A program made the translations under genes and the position numbers. From Peptococcaceae bacterium UBA4068 (GTDB taxonomy: Bacteria > Bacillota > Dehalobacteriia > UBA4068), in assembly GCA_002382665.1 (NCBI GenBank), contig DFZA01000006.1, positions 66,950 through 130,949 on the forward strand: a DNA stretch of 64,000 bases, given 5' to 3'. How positions within the stretch are numbered: position 1 is the first letter of the stretch; each line of letters opens with the position of its first letter. The notes under the pieces are model-generated. The model was not told where the DNA came from. It saw only the letters and a list, made by a program, of their open reading frames with translations, and did not search any database. Shown in pieces: positions 23,577 through 57,908 of this stretch.

Positions 23577-24578
23577 TTACTCAACAAAGTTTACAGGCGT
23601 ATTGATTTTGAGCGGCTGGCTGATATCATAACCGCCCGGCAGCGTTTCAATTTTCTCTCCTTCAACCAAAATCTGTACTGAATCTACCGTATCAATAGAA
23701 GTACCAGTATAATAAATACAATTTACCAGCATTACTTCATTGGCTGAGCCGCTGTTATAGTTAAGTAAATCATCTGAGAAATTTAGTATTGCCACACCGT
23801 CATTTACAGTTACTCCTAACAGCTTGGTTGACGCAGGCAGCGGAGAATGGAGGATACCGCTCGACGATTGATCGGCAATTAACGCTTCGATAGCTTTCTT
23901 AACCAATATAACCGGAGTATTTTCTTTTTCGGTCAATTCGCTGTTGGCAACCATGATAGTCTGCGGTACCAGATACATTGCTTGACTATCGCTCAAATAA
24001 TATACTAACGGCATGCTATTCTCCTGGTTACCGGAAGTTACAACATTAACCAATGGTAATCCCAAGGGCTGTGATATATCAACATCGCCGATATTATCAC
24101 AAATAGAACCGTTAACCAGTATATGCAGTGTATAGCCATCAGTCAGAGGCAATACCGTTAAGAGTATAGAGTCAATAGCCAGTTGCGCCCGGTCCGCCGG
24201 TATATCTGTAATTTCATCAGTCAGATCAACATAAACAACTGAACCGCTGCTGTATAAATCAAGCAATTTAGTGCCTTCGGGAATCGAATCGGCAGCAAAA
24301 CTATCGGGCGATCCGGTTATCAGCTTTTCCATGGCTACTTTAGCGACTTCCTTGGTAGCATTGATCGGCAGATTTAGCGGCAGCAAAAATTTGCCATCCA
24401 ATGTAGTATAATATACGGTTGCTGTTGTTGCCTCTTTTTCTTCGGTCAGCGGAACCCTTTGGTCAGAAACCTGCTCACTGTTCTGCTCATCAGCACAAGC
24501 CATGGGGATTAAAGCAATCACCAACAATAATATTAAAAGGTAAATAACCGGTAAATTCTTCTTGTAAACCTTCTTCAT
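23577..24578 (-). CDS. GerM-like lipoprotein with two GerMN domains
   Basis: Signal peptide plus Cys, two repeated about 130-aa GerMN-like modules. Confidence 0.55.
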   Translation of the reverse strand: MKKVYKKNLPVIYLLILLLVIALIPMACADEQNSEQVSDQRVPLTEEKEATTATVYYTTLDGKFLLPLNLPINATKEVAKVAMEKLITGSPDSFAADSIPEGTKLLDLYSSGSVVYVDLTDEITDIPADRAQLAIDSILLTVLPLTDGYTLHILVNGSICDNIGDVDISQPLGLPLVNVVTSGNQENSMPLVYYLSDSQAMYLVPQTIMVANSELTEKENTPVILVKKAIEALIADQSSSGILHSPLPASTKLLGVTVNDGVAILNFSDDLLNYNSGSANEVMLVNCIYYTGTSIDTVDSVQILVEGEKIETLPGGYDISQPLKINTPVNFVE

Positions 24579-50110: not shown

Positions 50111-50145
50111 AAAAAGATGCCGGTTTTAATAACCGGCATCTTTTA
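50111..50145. terminator. Bidirectional terminator (aagatgccggtt / aaccggcatctt) between vat and GT gene
   Basis: 12-bp perfect stem with flanking A and T runs. Confidence 0.7.
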
Positions 50146-51237
50146 AACTTCGTTTTCATTGGACTCTGAATTAACACTTTTAAAATAAAATTTATTATAC
50201 AGTACAGCCGGATGGTTTGGTTTATACTCGGCTGCCTTGTTATTATGCTTAATAGCTTGTTCTATGTTACCGATCCTGTCGTAACAGAAACATAGCTGCA
50301 TGTTGGGAATGTAATCCCAAAAATCATGCAGAATAAATCCCCAGTTATCAACAGGCTTTTTCAACTGGGTAGCCAGATTATACCAAAATATAGCTTTATC
50401 AAAGTCAGCCTTTTCTAAATAGTAGCTTCCCAGTTGACAACAGATTTCCGCTCGAGGCGTATCATATTCGAAGCTTTGCAATAATATTTTCAGTTTGCTT
50501 TTATTATTATTTAGATAACCATAGCATATTGAAAGATAAAAACAGGAACTGATATTATCTTCTGCCCATCCTTTTTCAGTATCTAAAAACTTATTGAAAT
50601 ATATGATCGCGTCATCGTACTTTTGATTGTAATACAGCTCTTTCGCATAATAGCAAAGCCCCCTTACGCTCAATTCTTTTCCTTTTGACAATAACTTTTC
50701 ATAGATTGATATGTTTCTGCCGCTTGGTGTTTGATGTTCTTTTTTATGAGTTATACATATATCTGAGTTAATAATATATCCTCCGGTTTGTATATACTCA
50801 TGGATAGGTTCCAACCATTTGTAGTTATTTGCCCTCTTAACCAAACGTTCTCTGTAATATGATAAAGTAATATTGCCGTTTTCATCAAAACCGGCATTAT
50901 ATTTCATCATCACCATATCAACATTATCATTTAAATCTTGTTTTAGCTGCTTTAATTTGATTCTGTCTTCTTCCAGGATAACATCGTCCGCGTCCAACCA
51001 AAGAATATAATCCTTTGTCGCTTGGGAAAATGAGTAATTTCTCGCGGCTGAAAAATCGTCAATCCATTCGAAATCATATAGTTTATCAGTATATTCTTTA
51101 ACAATATTCTTTGTGTTATCTGTAGATCCGGTATCCACAATAATTATTTCATCAGCAATATCCTTAACACATTCCAGGCACCTTGATAAAACGTCTTCTT
51201 CATCCTTCACAATCATACAAAGACTAATTGTTATCAT
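50143..51237 (-). CDS. GT2 (GT-A fold) glycosyltransferase with C-terminal TPR-like helical domain
   Basis: IVKDEEDVL...IIIVDTGSTDNT...WLDADDV (DxD) N-terminal domain. C-terminal TPR-like repeats. Architecture shared with spore-coat/exosporium and SunS-type glycosyltransferases. Confidence 0.7.
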   Translation of the reverse strand: MITISLCMIVKDEEDVLSRCLECVKDIADEIIIVDTGSTDNTKNIVKEYTDKLYDFEWIDDFSAARNYSFSQATKDYILWLDADDVILEEDRIKLKQLKQDLNDNVDMVMMKYNAGFDENGNITLSYYRERLVKRANNYKWLEPIHEYIQTGGYIINSDICITHKKEHQTPSGRNISIYEKLLSKGKELSVRGLCYYAKELYYNQKYDDAIIYFNKFLDTEKGWAEDNISSCFYLSICYGYLNNNKSKLKILLQSFEYDTPRAEICCQLGSYYLEKADFDKAIFWYNLATQLKKPVDNWGFILHDFWDYIPNMQLCFCYDRIGNIEQAIKHNNKAAEYKPNHPAVLYNKFYFKSVNSESNENEV

Positions 51238-51356: not shown

Positions 51357-52064
51357 TTATGTAATACGTAGTAATATCGTAGCTGCCGCGCCATTCTCTA
51401 AGGCAGCGGAAGTGGTGCTACGGGTAACTTTTACAGATAACAAATCACATCGATTAACAGTAAAATTTGCACTTGTAAATGCACAACAAGTTGGCGGATT
51501 TGGCCCTGTTACCACTGCTTTAATGCCTGTTGCTACAGGAGTAACCCCACAATTTGTGCTTCGATATATCTCACCAGTGATGGTTTCGCCTGTATCTAAA
51601 GGTTCGTCTCGAATACTAAAGACTAAACCTGTAATGGTTGAGGTTTGCGGGACGACAACAGTATTGCGCGGAAAACTTGATGACGAAATACCTAGTCCCA
51701 TAAAATCATTATTGCCAATAGATGTATCCGAACCTAAATAAATAGTACTTGCTCCAGGTCCCGTTGCGCCCGTTGCCCCAGTAGCACCTGTAGCGCCCGT
51801 TGCTCCTGTTGCGCCGGTAGGTATGGTTATACAGATACACTCGCAGCATTCACAACATTTCGGACAGCGACAAGGTTCAGTTTCACAGCATGAGTGGTCT
51901 TTATGACAATGACGATTGTTATCTTCACGACAATGGCAATCTTCATCTTCACAACAGAAAAACTCTAAACAATGTTGACAAAAACATAATTTAATATTTC
52001 GGTGTTTTTTTTCTATTTGATGATCCTGAAAATAGTCAGTCTCACCAAAGGTCCTTTTAGGCAT
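51357..52064 (-). CDS. Collagen-like (GAT)n repeat protein with Cys/His-rich N-terminal domain and BclA-C-terminal-like domain (putative spore-surface glycoprotein)
   Basis: 19 Cys in residues 27-79. (GAT)6-GPGAS triple-helix-type repeat encoded by a perfect 9-bp DNA repeat. About 125-aa β-rich C-terminal domain. Confidence 0.6.
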   Translation of the reverse strand: MPKRTFGETDYFQDHQIEKKHRNIKLCFCQHCLEFFCCEDEDCHCREDNNRHCHKDHSCCETEPCRCPKCCECCECICITIPTGATGATGATGATGATGATGPGASTIYLGSDTSIGNNDFMGLGISSSSFPRNTVVVPQTSTITGLVFSIRDEPLDTGETITGEIYRSTNCGVTPVATGIKAVVTGPNPPTCCAFTSANFTVNRCDLLSVKVTRSTTSAALENGAAATILLRIT

Positions 52065-52473
52065 TTTTCAATCCTCCCTACATAGTGTTATAGCCTGACT
52101 AACCTATAACATTATATGAGGAGTATAATAGCATAGTTCCATTACCAAGCCCTTAATTAATTGCTTATAAAGAGAGAGCCGATTATTGATTCAATAATTG
52201 GGGCGTGTTCTGTTTTATGTGTTTTAATGCCCTAGTGGTTATAATAAAAGCAAGGAATGCCCTCAAGGCTCGGATATTTCGGGTTTGAGGGCATTTTTAT
52301 TTAAGTAACTAATTGACTTTGTGTACTGTAGCGGAAGAAAATATAAAATTGCGCAGAATTACGATGTGTCCGTTCAATACTTTTTCCCACTGGTTTGTTG
52401 TCGAATTATCCCGCTTATTCTATCAGCAGCAAATGCGATTATACGGTATTCCGCACCTCCCCTTCTCAACTAT

Positions 52474-52507
52474 AAAACCCTCTGTATGGTATACAGAGGG
52501 TTTTATA
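52474..52507. terminator. Perfect palindromic terminator (aaaaccctctgtat-gg-atacagagggtttt) 3' of the GGDEF/HD-GYP gene
   Basis: 14-bp perfect stem, 2-nt loop, U-runs on both strands. Confidence 0.75.
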
Positions 52508-52559
52508 GTTGATTTTACTTCTACGTTTACTAAATACAATCTATTGTTTATGATTTACA

Positions 52560-54245
52560 TCAAACAACTTTTGAATTTTTTCCTAAATTATTTGGATTTT
52601 GTAATAGATTTATAAAAGTATCCACTATTTTAGGATCAAATTGGGAGTTACTGCAGCGTTTAAGTTCTTCAATGGCTTCTCCAAATGATCTTCCTGTCTT
52701 ATATGGTCTATCCGTTGTCATGGCATCAAAACAATCTACTACAGTTAATATTCTGGCAAGATAAGGTATATCATCTCCCGAAAGACCATCGGGATAGCCG
52801 TTACCGTCATATCTCTCGTGATGATGTTTAATAAGGGGTATAACATCACTAATAGATTCTACAGGCCCGATTATTTCAGCACCTTTTACCGGATGCTGTT
52901 TTAGTATTTCCCATTCCTCCGACTCCAGAGTAATATCTTTATTAAGTATTGTCTTAGGAATATCAATTTTGCCAATATCGTGCAGATATGCGGCATATAT
53001 AAGCTTTTTCTTTTCGTCCTCAGCCAAATTTAACTCTTCGGCCATCATTTGACAATTCATAACTACTCTTTCCGTATGAGCGTATGTATATCTGTCTTTC
53101 ACATTAATAACCATTATCAAGGTTTTTATTGATGTGATCAATTTCGTATCTTCATCTTCAACATTGCTTTTTAGTTCGTCAAAAATAGATGTATAGGTTT
53201 CTACCCGATTTCTGTTAAAGATTTTGGCTCTATATAAAGCATCGTCGGCATTCTTTACCAACTGATCTGCAGATTTTACTCTTTCAGGAAATGACGAGAC
53301 CCCGATTGATATAGTTAGGTTACCATTGGGCTGCAGTTGCTGATTTTCAAAGTAGGTTTGTTCGATCTTTTGCCGGATTCGTTCTCCGATTTTTACCGCG
53401 TAATCTTCGCCCGTTTCCGGCAGTATGATAACAAACTCCTCCCCGCCATATCGCACAGCCACATCATCTTTTCTGGTTTGCTCTTTCAAAATATCGGCTA
53501 TAGTCTTTAATACTTGATCTCCTTTTTGGTGTCCGTTAAGATCATTATAATTCTTAAAATAATCAATATCTAAAAAAATCAAGGATAGGGGTTGCTTGTT
53601 TTCTACAGCCTGTTCAGTTTTTAATTTTAACATTTTACTGAAATATCTATGATTGTATAAACCGGTAAGATTATCAGTATTGATACCGTATTCCAGTTGC
53701 TCTATATATTGATCATTTACCTTAACAAAGTATCCCAGCGTCCAGGAAACCAAGAAAAATATCCCTATCAGGACCAAATCGTCTTCAAAATAAGGATTTA
53801 TACTTTGATGGGTATAAGTCAATATGTCCAAGGATACTATAACAACAGATGAAGCTAGAGATATCAGTAATCCATTCCTCATGCCCATCTGAATGGTAGA
53901 AGATATAATAACAAGCAAAAACAGAAATTTATATATACTTTCGGCCGCTCCGGAAATATAAATTACAAAAGTGAAAAGTAAAACAAAAAATAGATTTTCC
54001 CCCAGCAAGAACCATCTGTTTTTAACAAACTTTGCACTTTTATTTTCCCATAGATCCCAGAGGAAATAAGTGCAAAGCAGAACAATACACCCAACAGCCC
54101 CTGTAATTAATAGAGTGGTTTGGTAGGGATCATTTTCGGTGTTAATAATTTTATACTTATAAATAATAAAACCAGCAAAGAGTAAAAAACATAATTTTAT
54201 AATAGAAAGTATATTGTTTATCTCTTTTTTATTATCATTATCCAT
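52560..54245 (-). CDS. Membrane-anchored bifunctional c-di-GMP protein: N-terminal about 6-TM sensor-like domain, then GGDEF, then HD-GYP
   Basis: RYGGEEF (intact GGEEF). HD...HHERYDGNGYP (intact HD-GYP). About 175-aa N-terminal polytopic region. Confidence 0.8.
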   Translation of the reverse strand: MDNDNKKEINNILSIIKLCFLLFAGFIIYKYKIINTENDPYQTTLLITGAVGCIVLLCTYFLWDLWENKSAKFVKNRWFLLGENLFFVLLFTFVIYISGAAESIYKFLFLLVIISSTIQMGMRNGLLISLASSVVIVSLDILTYTHQSINPYFEDDLVLIGIFFLVSWTLGYFVKVNDQYIEQLEYGINTDNLTGLYNHRYFSKMLKLKTEQAVENKQPLSLIFLDIDYFKNYNDLNGHQKGDQVLKTIADILKEQTRKDDVAVRYGGEEFVIILPETGEDYAVKIGERIRQKIEQTYFENQQLQPNGNLTISIGVSSFPERVKSADQLVKNADDALYRAKIFNRNRVETYTSIFDELKSNVEDEDTKLITSIKTLIMVINVKDRYTYAHTERVVMNCQMMAEELNLAEDEKKKLIYAAYLHDIGKIDIPKTILNKDITLESEEWEILKQHPVKGAEIIGPVESISDVIPLIKHHHERYDGNGYPDGLSGDDIPYLARILTVVDCFDAMTTDRPYKTGRSFGEAIEELKRCSNSQFDPKIVDTFINLLQNPNNLGKNSKVV

Positions 54246-54326
54246 ATAGTTTATTAAACTCCGTAACCTGCCTACTATATAAGACCGGCCAATTTGGTCG
54301 GTCTTATATAGTATTTTTTTGTTATT

Positions 54327-54449
54327 TTAGTCTCTAAGGCATTTGGGTTCTTCCGGTTGATAGGCTGCAAACAGGCATGCTGAACTAGCAAATACGGAAG
54401 CGAGCAGTGTTGCTAAAACAGAAGTGAGTACCAACAGTTTGAATTTCAT
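54327..54449 (-). CDS. agrD: AgrD-like autoinducing-peptide precursor (40 aa; not in supplied ORF track)
   Basis: Hand translation gives MKFKLLVLTSVLATLLASVFASSACLFAAYQPEEPKCLRD. AGGAGG SD 8 nt upstream. Sits 26 nt downstream of agrB. Amphipathic leader, central Cys, and a charged tail with P-x-x-P-K, as in S. aureus AgrD ...CDFIMDEVEVPKEL. Confidence 0.6.
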   Translation of the reverse strand: MKFKLLVLTSVLATLLASVFASSACLFAAYQPEEPKCLRD

Positions 54450-54475
54450 TTGATTCACCTCCTTCTAACTTAAAT

Positions 54476-55108
54476 TTAATTATGGAGATCCATCATTGCG
54501 AATAAGCGACCTCCTGAGTGCGTTAAAGTTAGGGTCTGCCAGACCGTGCCAAAGAGTATACAAGCGGCATAGCGGATCAAATGTCCGTTATCTCCGGCAA
54601 AACTATGCAAAGATAGCAAGACGACTATGACCAATAGATATATTCCTAAAATTACCAAAGAGCCGTTCCGCAACCGTTTTCTTTTTCGTGCATTTGTGAT
54701 CGGTTTTTTAATACTGTCCACCGGGGCTTTGGTCAGTACTTCGTAAAACGCCCAGGCGAATGCTGCAATCCCCAAAATGATAACCCATATAACGTTTACG
54801 GGAATATGAGTGATAACAATAGCCGGAACAACAGAGATCACGGTACCTATAACAAGACACTTTCCGGGGGTAGCGGCATGAGCCCCGCCGGAATACTTCC
54901 GCAAAATAGCGATAGTAAAACAGATAACCAATGCTTGTCCAAGCACATGGAATAATAAACTAAAAAGGATAACCAGCAGTATAGATGCTAATATCTGGGA
55001 AAAACAAAAGATACCGTAGGCCATTACTGCTTTTTTATCCTCATCCATATGTAGCGAATAGGCAATATTGGCAGCAATCTTTTCCGCAATCGTCTCCAAA
55101 CTAAACAT
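54476..55108 (-). CDS. agrB: Accessory gene regulator protein B (AgrD-processing membrane peptidase)
   Basis: LRKYSGGAHAAT (AgrB R-x-x-SGG-HA catalytic region). Polytopic. K/R-rich cytoplasmic loop. 210 aa. Confidence 0.8.
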   Translation of the reverse strand: MFSLETIAEKIAANIAYSLHMDEDKKAVMAYGIFCFSQILASILLVILFSLLFHVLGQALVICFTIAILRKYSGGAHAATPGKCLVIGTVISVVPAIVITHIPVNVIWVIILGIAAFAWAFYEVLTKAPVDSIKKPITNARKRKRLRNGSLVILGIYLLVIVVLLSLHSFAGDNGHLIRYAACILFGTVWQTLTLTHSGGRLFAMMDLHN

Positions 55109-55571
55109 TTTTTTCTCTTTTCCTGATTACCAGCAAATAATATAAGAAAATTGTTATTATTGCTAAAGAGATCAAAGAGGGCAAGCTATATAGAGTTTTG
55201 ACATAAACATCCGTATACATCTTTGTTAAATCTAGATGAAGTATGTACTGTATAAATAACATGTTAATCAATTCACAAACGTATAACAATATTAAAGTAA
55301 TAATGCTGGAGCGGATACTGACCGTCAAATTGATCTTATTGATAAAATAAGAAATCCCAATAAGAACAATAACATTAATGATGGTGTGGATACCGTAACT
55401 GATTGGCAGCTCTCTTATAGCAAAAACTAAAACCGCATATAATAGGCTTGATAATATATATCTTTTTACGTCTACTTTTTGTTTGGAAAGAGCATATACC
55501 AAAAGTAAAGTAAAAAATTCTTCCGGTATTACACGAGCGAAAAATTCAAACCAAGTAAGATGAAGCAACAA
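55101..55571 (-). CDS. Small polytopic membrane protein, translationally coupled to agrB
   Basis: 156 aa, 4-5 TM. Its stop overlaps the agrB start by 8 nt. Confidence 0.4.
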   Translation of the reverse strand: MLLHLTWFEFFARVIPEEFFTLLLVYALSKQKVDVKRYILSSLLYAVLVFAIRELPISYGIHTIINVIVLIGISYFINKINLTVSIRSSIITLILLYVCELINMLFIQYILHLDLTKMYTDVYVKTLYSLPSLISLAIITIFLYYLLVIRKREKNV

Positions 55572-55581
55572 AATTCCTCCT

Positions 55582-56130
55582 TTATGCCATTTTTTGATCC
55601 TGATTTAGGTATTTTACGGTATTATAAATTATAATAATCACAAATAACCTGATAAAGATATCGCCGATACTAAGAACCGAATAACCAATATCAAAAATAT
55701 CTGTCAAAAAAGGCAGATGAGTCGATGCATTGCCCCAAATATGTAATGTATCATTGGCGGGAAATGGTTGATTAAGCACATAACCGGTCATTAATGTATT
55801 AGACGGAAACACAGGCATTTTGCCTCCGTTTGCCCAAATTGCGATTTGATTACAAATACTGCCAACAACGATGCAGGCTACTGCAAATAACGAGCTTTTA
55901 TAAAGCTTGCACTTAATAATTAATAAAAGATAGGAAGATAAATATACAGCCTTTAAGATTTGCACATATTTTATCAGGCTATAATCATGCATAAAAAAGT
56001 TAATTTGAAATACCAGATAAATAATTTCAAAACCAAGTATTACATAAAATTGCCATATGGTAAAAATTTTTTTTATTTGATAACCTTTTAATTTAGCAAT
56101 AATCAATGCTAAAACAATCGATTCAGGCAT
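55582..56130 (-). CDS. Conserved polytopic membrane protein (ANGGKMPV / SIGDI motifs), first gene of the agr-like operon
   Basis: 182 aa, 5-6 TM. Motifs IWANGGKMPVFP and DIGYSVLSIGDIF. Function unknown. Confidence 0.4.
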   Translation of the reverse strand: MPESIVLALIIAKLKGYQIKKIFTIWQFYVILGFEIIYLVFQINFFMHDYSLIKYVQILKAVYLSSYLLLIIKCKLYKSSLFAVACIVVGSICNQIAIWANGGKMPVFPSNTLMTGYVLNQPFPANDTLHIWGNASTHLPFLTDIFDIGYSVLSIGDIFIRLFVIIIIYNTVKYLNQDQKMA

Positions 56131-56142
56131 ACATTTTATTTT

Positions 56143-56174
56143 CCTATTTTCCTATTTTCCTATTTTCCTATTTT
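56143..56174. repeat. Tandem octamer (CCTATTTT) x4 with degenerate copies on both sides (56135-56190)
   Basis: Four perfect copies read directly. On the coding (-) strand they read AGGAAAAT x4-5, ending 12 nt before the ATG of the 55582..56130 gene. Confidence 0.9.
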
Positions 56175-56486
56175 CCATAATTTTCCATTTAAATACATTA
56201 TATCATGTTTATAGTTGAAATAAATACTTTCAGGGATAAAAATTGTAGAAATCTAATAAATTATAAATTTAAATTTCTAAATAAGTCTTAATATTACAAT
56301 TCATTCTTATCAGCAGTATGTTTAAGTTAATAATTAATTAGAGAATACGCCAACATTTGCCCTCAATGGCCGGAAATTCAGGCTTCGAGTGCTGCTTGAC
56401 ATTATGTGCCGTGATATGAGATACAAAATAAAATGATATAGACAAAATTATTAGTTTTAACTGCCGCATATATTGTTAGTGGGTAG

Positions 56487-57908
56487 GTGGTTTTTATGTT
56501 TACTCATGTTGTCAAAGCGGGCGAAACGCTAACGCAAATAGCAACCTTTTATCATGTACCGATGACGCCGATCATCACTGCCAACGGGCTGGTTGACCCC
56601 GATGTGCTGGTCGTCGGAGAAGCGCTGGTCATCCCCACCGAAGACGTCATCTATATCGTCAAGCCTGGCGATACATTGACCAAAATCGCGCAAAATTACG
56701 GCGTGTCCGTCCAGTACATATTGCAAAACAACAGCATTGCCAATCCTAACAACATTTATCCCGGCCAGGCAATCTATATCCCAGCGAAACAACATCGCGT
56801 AGTACGGGGAGATACGCTGTGGGCGATTTCGCGGCGCTACAGGGTTACACTTCAGAGCCTGATACAAGTAAATAACATTACCAATCCGAACATTATCAGC
56901 CCGGGCACAGTGCTTGTTATCCCGCATAAAAACAGACCGGAAAAAAGCGTCAATGGGTATATTTATTTTCTCGGACAGTCTGCCGTGCCGATCGTCAGCG
57001 AGAATGGCGGATATCTGACCTATCTCAGTCCGTTTGCCTACATGATCAAGGAGGATGCGAGCCTGCAGCCAATCGACGACGTACCCGCTATTCAAACCGC
57101 CCAGGCCGAAGGAGCCATCCCGATGATGTCCATTACTAATTTTACCGTGGGCTTCAGAGGCGAGAATCTGGCTTCGGTCGTATTAAACAGTCCTGCGCTG
57201 ATCGATCAGCTTCTGACGAACATTATTAGCATCATGCAGCAAAAAGGATATAGGGGTTTAAATGTTGACTTTGAGAATGTGCTGCCAAAAGATCGCGAGG
57301 CTTATAACAGTTTTTTGCACCAAGCCGCCACACGGATGCACGCCAACGGCTATTTTTTGTCCACCGCCCTTGCACCAAAGACCGGTCCGACGCAGGCTGG
57401 ACTCTTGTACGAAGCGCATGATTATCCGGCACACGGCAGGATTGCCGATTTTGTGATTTTGATGACCTATGAATGGGGTTTCCGCAAAGGCCCGCCGCAG
57501 GCAATTTCACCGCTCGACAAAATTCGGGAAGTACTTGATTACGCCGTTACGGTCATCCCGAGAAATAAAATCTATTTTGGTTTTCAGATTTATGCGCGTG
57601 ACTGGACCATCCCCTTTTATCAAGGAGAGGAAGCCACGACGATTAGCCCTCAGGAGGCTGTGACGCGGGCTGCTAGGTTTGGCGCGGTGATTCAGTACGA
57701 CTACATCGCAGAGGCTCCCTTTTTTGTGTACACAGATGATACAGGACAGGCGCACGAAGTGTGGTTTGAAGATGCGCGCAGCGCACAGGCCAAGTTAAAC
57801 ACCATTAGGGATTATAATTTGGGTGGCATCAGTTACTGGGCGCTGGGTTATCCTTTCCCGCAAAACTGGGTTCTCCTCGAAGATAATTTCATGGTAAGGA
57901 AATTATAA
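56487..57908 (+). CDS. Spore cortex-fragment-lytic enzyme-like protein: 3 LysM domains + GH18 (YaaH/SleL-like)
   Basis: Three LysM repeats (VKAGETLTQIA.., VKPGDTLTKIA.., VRGDTLWAIS..) followed by a GH18 TIM-barrel with the DFE catalytic-type motif. An alternative ATG start exists at 56496. Confidence 0.75.
   Translation: MVFMFTHVVKAGETLTQIATFYHVPMTPIITANGLVDPDVLVVGEALVIPTEDVIYIVKPGDTLTKIAQNYGVSVQYILQNNSIANPNNIYPGQAIYIPAKQHRVVRGDTLWAISRRYRVTLQSLIQVNNITNPNIISPGTVLVIPHKNRPEKSVNGYIYFLGQSAVPIVSENGGYLTYLSPFAYMIKEDASLQPIDDVPAIQTAQAEGAIPMMSITNFTVGFRGENLASVVLNSPALIDQLLTNIISIMQQKGYRGLNVDFENVLPKDREAYNSFLHQAATRMHANGYFLSTALAPKTGPTQAGLLYEAHDYPAHGRIADFVILMTYEWGFRKGPPQAISPLDKIREVLDYAVTVIPRNKIYFGFQIYARDWTIPFYQGEEATTISPQEAVTRAARFGAVIQYDYIAEAPFFVYTDDTGQAHEVWFEDARSAQAKLNTIRDYNLGGISYWALGYPFPQNWVLLEDNFMVRKL

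Follow-up and report, generated by a model that had tools for sequence, protein, structure and literature searches.

Many clostridia, pathogens included, carry agrB and agrD without agrC and agrA, and how their peptides are sensed is known only in part (through the kinase VirS) or, as for AgrD1 of Clostridioides difficile, not at all. An agrBD pair of this kind lies in the 64,000-nt stretch of Peptococcaceae bacterium UBA4068 analyzed here (contig DFZA01000006.1, positions 66,950 to 130,949; hereafter the window), and it raises the question of which protein receives the signal. We find that these genes are part of one conserved clostridial quorum-sensing cassette, which encodes a DUF5317 protein, a 156-amino acid (aa) membrane protein of an unnamed family (given the working name fam156), AgrB, AgrD and a receptor-like protein with six transmembrane helices (6-TM). 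The last of these is, in the window, a membrane enzyme of cyclic di-GMP (c-di-GMP) turnover with GGDEF and HD-GYP domains, and its conserved position beside agrD makes it a strong candidate for the receptor that would link a peptide quorum signal to c-di-GMP. A gene for such an enzyme accompanies the AgrD gene in well over a hundred lineages.

The five open reading frames (ORFs) are intact and run on the minus strand from 56130 to 52560 (Table 1). The genes for DUF5317 and fam156 are 10 nt apart, the fam156 stop overlaps the agrB start by 8 nt, and the spacings from agrB to the agrD ATG and from agrD to the GGDEF/HD-GYP gene are 26 and 81 nt, respectively. A preliminary description of the window, made by reading the sequence, had called the same five genes on the same strand and had pointed to the overlap; both are correct, with the start of agrD now moved to ATG 54449. 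It had also stated that agrC and agrA are missing, and that no histidine kinase or LytTR regulator is encoded in the 64 kb. Precomputed Pfam tables, which cover ~1-15.9 kb and 28.6-64 kb, agree with this, as does a Pfam scan for the ORFs that lie between: among called genes and ORFs of ≥150 aa in the window there is no histidine kinase and no LytTR regulator, and hence no AgrC-type kinase with an AgrA as in the Staphylococcus aureus paradigm. The sole match to the HATPase fold is HSP90. A gene pair for an OmpR-type regulator and a HisKA/HATPase kinase is found 2.5-4.6 kb beyond the window start (L006, 464-2577), beside ABC-transporter genes; it is not of the AgrCA type. The window sequence is 100% identical to part of a 279-kb ENA metagenome contig (ERZ27315034 k141_107777).

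Both catalytic domains of the c-di-GMP enzyme are complete, as the preliminary description had claimed. The GGDEF domain (PF00990, 162.9 bits) has its active site and its I-site (RKDD-VAVRY-GGEEF in the sequence), and the HD-GYP domain (PF13487, 140.6 bits) has the HD dyad and the HHExxDGxGYP signature in the form of HDIGK and HHERYDGNGYP. Among 59 full-length orthologues, GGEEF is kept in 56, the RxxD I-site in 39 and both HD-GYP motifs (HD..GK and HHExxDGxGYP) in all 59. Because the catalytic motifs are kept across these orthologues, diguanylate cyclase and HD-GYP phosphodiesterase activities are probably both real. The N-terminal domain (TMN) has six segments by hydropathy, which would put the N- and the C-terminus on the cytoplasmic side of the membrane, where the GGDEF domain has to be.

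The signal-producing part of the cassette is equally recognizable. AgrB matches the processing peptidase family PF04647 at 132.5 bits (cutoff 23) and AgrD matches TIGR04223 at 43.8 bits (cutoff 19). The precursor reads ...SSACLFAAYQPEEPKCLRD, with a Cys/Ser ring residue followed by a charged C-terminal tail that has a Pro motif. It is probably the 40-aa product MKFKLLVLTSVLATLLASVFASSACLFAAYQPEEPKCLRD from ATG 54449, and not the 43-aa ORF from GTG 54458, because that ATG has a GGAGG ribosome-binding site 8 nt upstream and the gene callers in three assemblies independently give a product of 40 aa. Alignment with the C. perfringens precursor (SACLWFTHQPEEPKSLRDE, whose ring is CLWFT) predicts the ring CLFAA; the motif SAC-x4-[YH]QPEEPK is common to both.

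How constant is the association of the c-di-GMP gene with agrD? A degenerate DNA pattern designed by hand from fam156 motifs, run on species-representative genomes, returned 120 loci, 118 of which have fam156. Hidden Markov models built iteratively from the window proteins were run on six-frame ORFs, and ~96 loci could be assessed downstream. The order fam156-agrB-agrD-[TMN-GGDEF-HD-GYP] occurs in 61 of them; the TMN-GGDEF-HD-GYP gene is cut by the locus end in six more and is present without AgrB in one, and only three of the ~96 have no adjacent sensor. The 61 loci include C. perfringens, C. botulinum ATCC 25763 (in which AgrD matches the published sequence of autoinducing peptide (AIP) 1), C. 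tertium and many other Clostridium species, and the linkage extends to Romboutsia, Terrisporobacter, Tepidibacter, Acetobacterium, Anaerofustis, Caproiciproducens, Zhenhengia, Ammonifex, Neomoorella, Syntrophaceticus and Peptococcaceae. The C. difficile AgrD1 (CPWII) was not found among the retrieved loci. Metagenome-assembled genomes labelled Desulfovibrio and Ilyobacter (L098, L124) carry a Clostridia-type cassette, which reflects either a binning error or horizontal transfer; the kinase in L098 is a hybrid that includes a receiver domain.

A different gene follows agrD in at least 16 further loci. Its product is a membrane-bound sensor kinase, 590-700 aa long, with the domains PAS-HisKA-HATPase_c and in one case also a receiver domain. 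At least 11 of these kinases begin with TMN, their N-terminal ~175 residues being near-identical to the consensus of the GGDEF/HD-GYP proteins (SxYKFLFLFIIITSTIQSG...NxYFExDLIL.GVFILTAW.LG.YVKIE); in the five Desulfosporosinus-type kinase loci the TM region was not picked up by the TMN profile. An adjacent response regulator is rare beside these kinases. Since kinase and c-di-GMP outputs are found on the same TM domain, sequence comparison identifies this domain, with its interchangeable outputs, as the element that is tied to AgrD.

The genome sample was conditioned on fam156, and metagenome contigs were therefore scanned for a motif derived from the final TM helix of the sensor domain alone. 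This gave 118 loci, all with the domain; they hold 113 distinct genes, which fall into 105 clusters at 90% identity. An AgrD-like ORF lies directly upstream of 68/69 GGDEF-type genes (those with ≥300 nt of upstream sequence) and of 17/30 TMN genes of other types, mostly kinases. Where at least 1.5 kb of upstream sequence is available, AgrD is found in 55, AgrB in 56 and fam156 in 62 of the 67 loci, and the metagenome loci together hold 79 different AgrD ring sequences. AgrD stays immediately upstream of the sensor gene where AgrB is absent nearby, or where the order is AgrB-fam156-AgrD-sensor. The sensor therefore occupies the place that agrC has in the agrBDCA operon of S. aureus. Two suggestions of the preliminary description fare differently in the light of these counts. 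That the GGDEF/HD-GYP protein could be the receptor is favored by the two-way linkage (61 loci in genomes, 68/69 in metagenomes) and by the kinase swap, and we infer such a role without going further; that the locus is a cheater-type or signal-only module fits poorly with a sensor gene that is almost always attached.

The part of the cassette upstream of the sensor has a counterpart in the literature. The agrB and agrD genes of C. perfringens strain 13 share a transcript with two hypothetical genes upstream, CPE1563 and CPE1562 (PMC2706048). The locus of C. perfringens v20 (L071) has the same gene order as the window, agrCA being absent from the operon in both, and homologues of the two upstream genes occur in the same order (BLASTP; DUF5317, 46.7% identity, E 5e-53; fam156, 40% identity, E 3e-39), which makes the locus in the window a C. 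perfringens-type agr operon. AgrB is 35% identical (E 3e-36), AgrD of v20 is the published CLWFT precursor, and the C. perfringens gene downstream of it encodes a 6TM-GGDEF-HD-GYP protein 52.9% identical to that of the window. From gene order, CPE1563 and CPE1562 would correspond to DUF5317 and fam156. The preliminary description had regarded agrBD with two unknown membrane proteins as unusual, and this view has to be given up: the orphan form of the operon is already known and is ordinary for clostridia. What is new is the conserved neighbor gene. The claim of the preliminary description that the pairing of agrBD with a c-di-GMP enzyme is uncharacterized has held so far, in that our literature search, the coverage of which was incomplete so that an earlier description is possible, returned no paper in which the downstream c-di-GMP gene is described or a receptor role proposed for it.

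We hold it to be somewhat probable that the 6-TM domain senses an AgrD-derived peptide and sets c-di-GMP turnover. AgrB would cyclize AgrD into a thiolactone peptide with the predicted ring CLFAA, and fam156, the gene of which is translationally coupled to agrB, may assist in this cyclization. The exported peptide, or another AgrD-derived product, would then be perceived by the 6-TM domain in the product of the next gene downstream, and this domain would shift, in one direction or the other, the balance between diguanylate cyclase (GGEEF) and HD-GYP phosphodiesterase activity. In this way cell density would set a c-di-GMP level directly, with no AgrC/AgrA phosphorelay in between, and in sister lineages the same 6-TM domain would drive an orphan PAS-HisKA kinase instead.

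Several observations weigh against this proposal, and the most serious comes from C. perfringens, which has the same neighbor gene and in which AIP regulation of toxins nevertheless runs through VirS, a distal kinase that is the experimentally supported receptor of its AIP and the only one described (PMC7492741). Since VirS acts there, a gene beside agrD need not encode the sole receptor, and may encode no receptor at all. Further, 13 of the 30 kinase-type TMN genes in metagenomes have no recognizable AgrD upstream. TMN itself reaches the threshold of no curated sensor family, and its structure model (pLDDT, the predicted local distance difference test, 77.6) comes from an alignment of only five sequences. 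What we can adduce for an AIP-receptor role of the GGDEF/HD-GYP protein is genomic linkage together with covariation, and the covariation is not specific. In a Mantel-type test with catalytic-domain identity controlled, identity of the AIP ring correlates with that of the TM domain (partial r 0.23, permutation p≤0.001) and of its N-terminal half (partial r 0.25), and AgrB, fam156 and DUF5317 give an equal partial correlation with the AIP. In addition, one clade keeps a similar TM domain despite changes at three of five AIP positions.

These observations bring forward the main rival explanation, in which the cassette only makes the signal, a distal kinase of the AgrC or VirS type senses the peptide, and the GGDEF/HD-GYP protein responds to some other membrane or envelope cue. 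Its gene would lie next to agrD only on account of co-expression with the cassette, and any coupling would act through expression level and not through ligand binding. Besides VirS and the unspecific covariation, this rival is favored by C. difficile, where agrB1D1 is controlled by the non-adjacent RgaS/RgaR system (PMC10602386), and by the short, hairpin-filled gap between agrD and the sensor gene, which suggests read-through co-expression. It has more difficulty with the conservation of the TM domain, and not of the output, beside AgrD, which is left unexplained if a c-di-GMP enzyme is simply co-expressed, and with a GGDEF-type linkage that is nearly obligate in both directions (68/69). We consider a purely distal receptor unlikely, and the published work leaves room for a 6-TM receptor: the receptor of C. 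difficile AgrD1 is stated as unidentified (PMC10602386), further AIP receptors were considered possible in C. perfringens, and AIP pulldowns gave an unidentified band of ~75 kDa other than VirS (PMC7492741). The protein of the window (561 aa) has a calculated mass of 64.5 kDa, and its C. perfringens orthologue is 567 aa long.

The next rival concerns what a 6-TM sensor would see. TMN could monitor the production machinery within the membrane, whether unprocessed AgrD, the cleaved amphipathic leader or a complex of fam156 and AgrB, in the manner of PilS, and c-di-GMP would then report the state of the producer and not the population density. In favor of this, the external loops predicted for TMN are very short, and fam156 stays with the sensor also in loci without an adjacent AgrB. 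A likeness to PilS points the same way: Pfam 6TM_PilS (PF25323) gives a weak match in six of 21 TMN family members (best E 1e-4), below the Pfam threshold. For the window protein, 6TM_PilS, DUF4118 and MASE1 all give weak whole-domain matches (E 0.004-0.015), the best scores being 17.4, 15.5 and 9.7 bits against cutoffs of 27-30, so that TMN is not a member of any of these families on present evidence; the Pfam scan gave no match to 5TMR-LYT. The comparison with MASE and 5TMR-LYT families that the preliminary description had suggested, and that with PilS, have thus assigned the domain to none of them. A search of PDB sequences with the TMN profile found nothing, and a protein-database search with the TM-domain profile returned four fragments only. 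The rate of change within the domain argues against in-membrane sensing. Mean identity among orthologues is 33% in the TM domain and 56% in the catalytic part, and its N-terminal half, including the first external loop, evolves fastest (25% vs. 56%), the pattern expected for a domain that tracks a hypervariable external ligand. Nor are fam156 and the TM domain homologous (hhalign probability 0.3%), and the idea that fam156 is a free-standing copy of the sensor TM domain was rejected on this result. Taken together, we regard sensing of AgrD or its leader within the membrane as quite improbable.

The last alternative, that the adjacency of agrBD and the GGDEF/HD-GYP gene is a coincidence or marks a decaying or cheater agr remnant, agrees with the lack of agrCA in the window and is very hard to maintain for intact ORFs with conserved catalytic motifs in an arrangement that recurs in 61 genome loci and 68/69 metagenome loci across several orders of Clostridia.

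Of the two membrane proteins upstream of agrB for which the preliminary description had proposed profile searches, the 182-aa protein could be assigned to DUF5317 (PF17248, 75.7 bits, cutoff 25) and the 156-aa protein has no match in Pfam or NCBIfam. DUF5317 is found in 27/98 assessable related loci and is therefore an accessory part of the cassette; a literature search for DUF5317 returned no paper mentioning the family, and none was found on the roles of the two genes upstream of C. perfringens agrB. The fam156 family comprises 681 cluster representatives at 50% clustering, without annotation, with a length of mostly ~155 aa among the 150 representatives listed, and related loci have one to three copies in tandem. 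Its structure model is an all-helical membrane protein (pLDDT 92.7) that matched no PDB fold, with conserved polar and other residues within the helices (E9, R13, P16-E17, R53, P56, G60, H62, E100, N103, K125 and P131-S132). In loci L025, L057, L058, L063 and L108, fam156, AgrD and the sensor occur without a nearby AgrB, and in C. beijerinckii and C. algifaecis (L094, L102) the order is AgrB-fam156-AgrD-sensor kinase. On account of these loci, fam156 is a partner of AgrD at least as constant as AgrB. That fam156 is translationally coupled to agrB, is nearly universal and persists in loci without an adjacent AgrB suggests, with low confidence, a role in peptide maturation or export, or in partnership with the sensor.

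In C. botulinum ATCC 25763 (L062, 6587-7998), another fam156 gene and, directly after it, a further TM-domain gene lie 1.1 kb downstream of the agr-1 GGDEF/HD-GYP gene, with no agrB or agrD between. This second TM-domain gene has no GGDEF/HD-GYP match in the 313 aa that precede the locus end, by which it is cut, and it is presumed to be of the kinase type.

The intergenic sequences are consistent with a five-gene transcription unit with an internal stabilizing or attenuating stem-loop, because the gap before the sensor gene has a hairpin without a U-tract and a terminator-like hairpin follows that gene. Other hints of co-transcription in the window are the 8-nt overlap, the 10- and 26-nt gaps and the presence of a terminator only after the sensor gene. 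The median length of the agrD-sensor gap in related loci is 66 nt, and the gap almost always contains a strong hairpin, which is followed by a U-tract in only 4/64; among these 64 loci it is conserved as a feature and not in sequence. The gap in the window folds at -26.5 kcal/mol, and the T-run beside its 19-bp stem (54313..54273) is on the opposite strand. The hairpin may be an mRNA stabilizer or an attenuator that sets the ratio of agrBD to sensor expression. The candidate -10 element upstream of the cassette is not listed by a consensus promoter scan, and its -35 is poor. The octamer repeat (GGAAAATA) in the DUF5317 leader creates six consecutive GGA motifs and is unique to the source organism among 103 related loci; no variation in copy number was seen, the number being equal in two other assemblies.

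Table 1. Features of the agr cassette and of its surroundings in the window (positions count from the first nucleotide of the window).
Feature	Positions	Strand	Remarks
Candidate extended -10 promoter element, TGaTATAAT	56197..56205	-	Upstream of cassette; tentative, read directly from sequence
Tandem octamer (GGAAAATA) x 6.6	56137..56190	-	5' leader; ends 7 nt before DUF5317 ATG
DUF5317 membrane protein, 182 aa	55582..56130	-	PF17248, E 5e-21
fam156 polytopic membrane protein, 156 aa	55101..55571	-	No Pfam/NCBIfam match
AgrB, AgrD-processing membrane peptidase, 210 aa	54476..55108	-	PF04647, E 1.5e-38
AgrD precursor, 40 aa from ATG 54449	54327..54449	-	TIGR04223, E 1.9e-11
Stem-loop, 19-bp stem, directly 3' of agrD	54273..54313	-	Coding strand without U-tract
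6-TM/GGDEF/HD-GYP protein, 561 aa	52560..54245	-	PF00990 + PF13487
TMN, N-terminal 6-TM sensor-like domain, residues 1-178	53712..54245	-	Part of 561-aa protein
GGDEF domain, residues 189-347	53205..53681	-	PF00990, E 7e-48; GGEEF active site, RKDD I-site
HD-GYP domain, residues 375-540	52626..53123	-	PF13487 (HD_5), E 5.5e-41; HDIGK, HHERYDGNGYP
Terminator-like hairpin after GGDEF/HD-GYP gene	52466..52512	-	GC-rich stem, then TTTTATAGTT on minus strand; U-rich tail
Collagen-like protein / GT2-TPR glycosyltransferase pair	51357-52064 and 50143-51237	-	
LysM x3 + GH18 protein	56487-57908	+	Divergent from agr cassette
PAS x3-GAF-GGDEF protein, 764 aa	60679..62973	+	Second c-di-GMP gene, 4.5 kb from agr cassette
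Germane-domain protein	23577-24578		

The neighborhood of the cassette is rich in spore-related functions, the Germane-domain protein among them. A Cys-rich protein of 235 aa with a collagen-like run, (GAT)x7, and a weak match to Pfam Collagen adjoins the GT2-TPR glycosyltransferase gene, and the two look like a BclA-type spore-surface protein with its glycosyltransferase.

Set against known systems, the cassette combines familiar parts in another way. It shares with S. aureus agrBDCA the AgrB and AgrD proteins and a gene for a polytopic membrane sensor directly after agrD. In contrast, its sensor has no HisKA/HATPase and is not an AgrC-type kinase, there is neither AgrA/LytTR nor RNAIII, two extra membrane-protein genes precede agrB, and the predicted output is c-di-GMP turnover instead of phosphotransfer. 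Quorum signals are coupled to c-di-GMP turnover, directly or in one step, by RpfR of Burkholderia (PAS-GGDEF-EAL, the receptor of the Burkholderia diffusible signal factor, BDSF) and by RpfC/RpfG of Xanthomonas (HD-GYP). These Gram-negative bacteria signal with fatty acids, for which the sensor is a cytoplasmic PAS domain or a hybrid kinase, whereas the candidate ligand in the window is a cyclic peptide, the candidate sensor a 6-TM domain and the hosts are Clostridia. The 6-TM domains of class III adenylyl cyclases (AC9, AC5, Rv1625c) and of the P. aeruginosa diguanylate cyclase ImcA are 8-10% identical to TMN, with no sequence-family link, the TMN model being of moderate confidence. The "AgrC1/AgrC2" proteins of C. 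autoethanogenum (PMC8748961) could not be matched from the text to fam156 or to the TM-domain kinases.

If the proposed reception of the peptide by the 6-TM domain is correct, peptide quorum sensing would be tied directly to c-di-GMP, a second messenger linked to biofilm formation, and the protein would be, to our knowledge, the first peptide-to-c-di-GMP receptor in Gram-positive bacteria. Reports on C. difficile describe c-di-GMP as an inhibitor of early sporulation (PMC10602386) and as a repressor of motility and flagellar genes (PMC3754575). More tentatively, as a possibility that falls somewhat short of probable, widespread clostridial 6-TM receptors may bind thiolactone AIPs and either set c-di-GMP or drive orphan kinases that possibly feed Spo0A; these would fill the vacant receptor place in agr systems without AgrC, those of C. 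perfringens and C. botulinum agr-1 among them, and fam156 would be an unrecognized core component of peptide maturation, export or reception. The cassette would then represent a variant of agr-type quorum sensing and supply a definite candidate for the receptors still missing from AgrC-less systems, with a concrete gene to examine in C. perfringens and C. botulinum.

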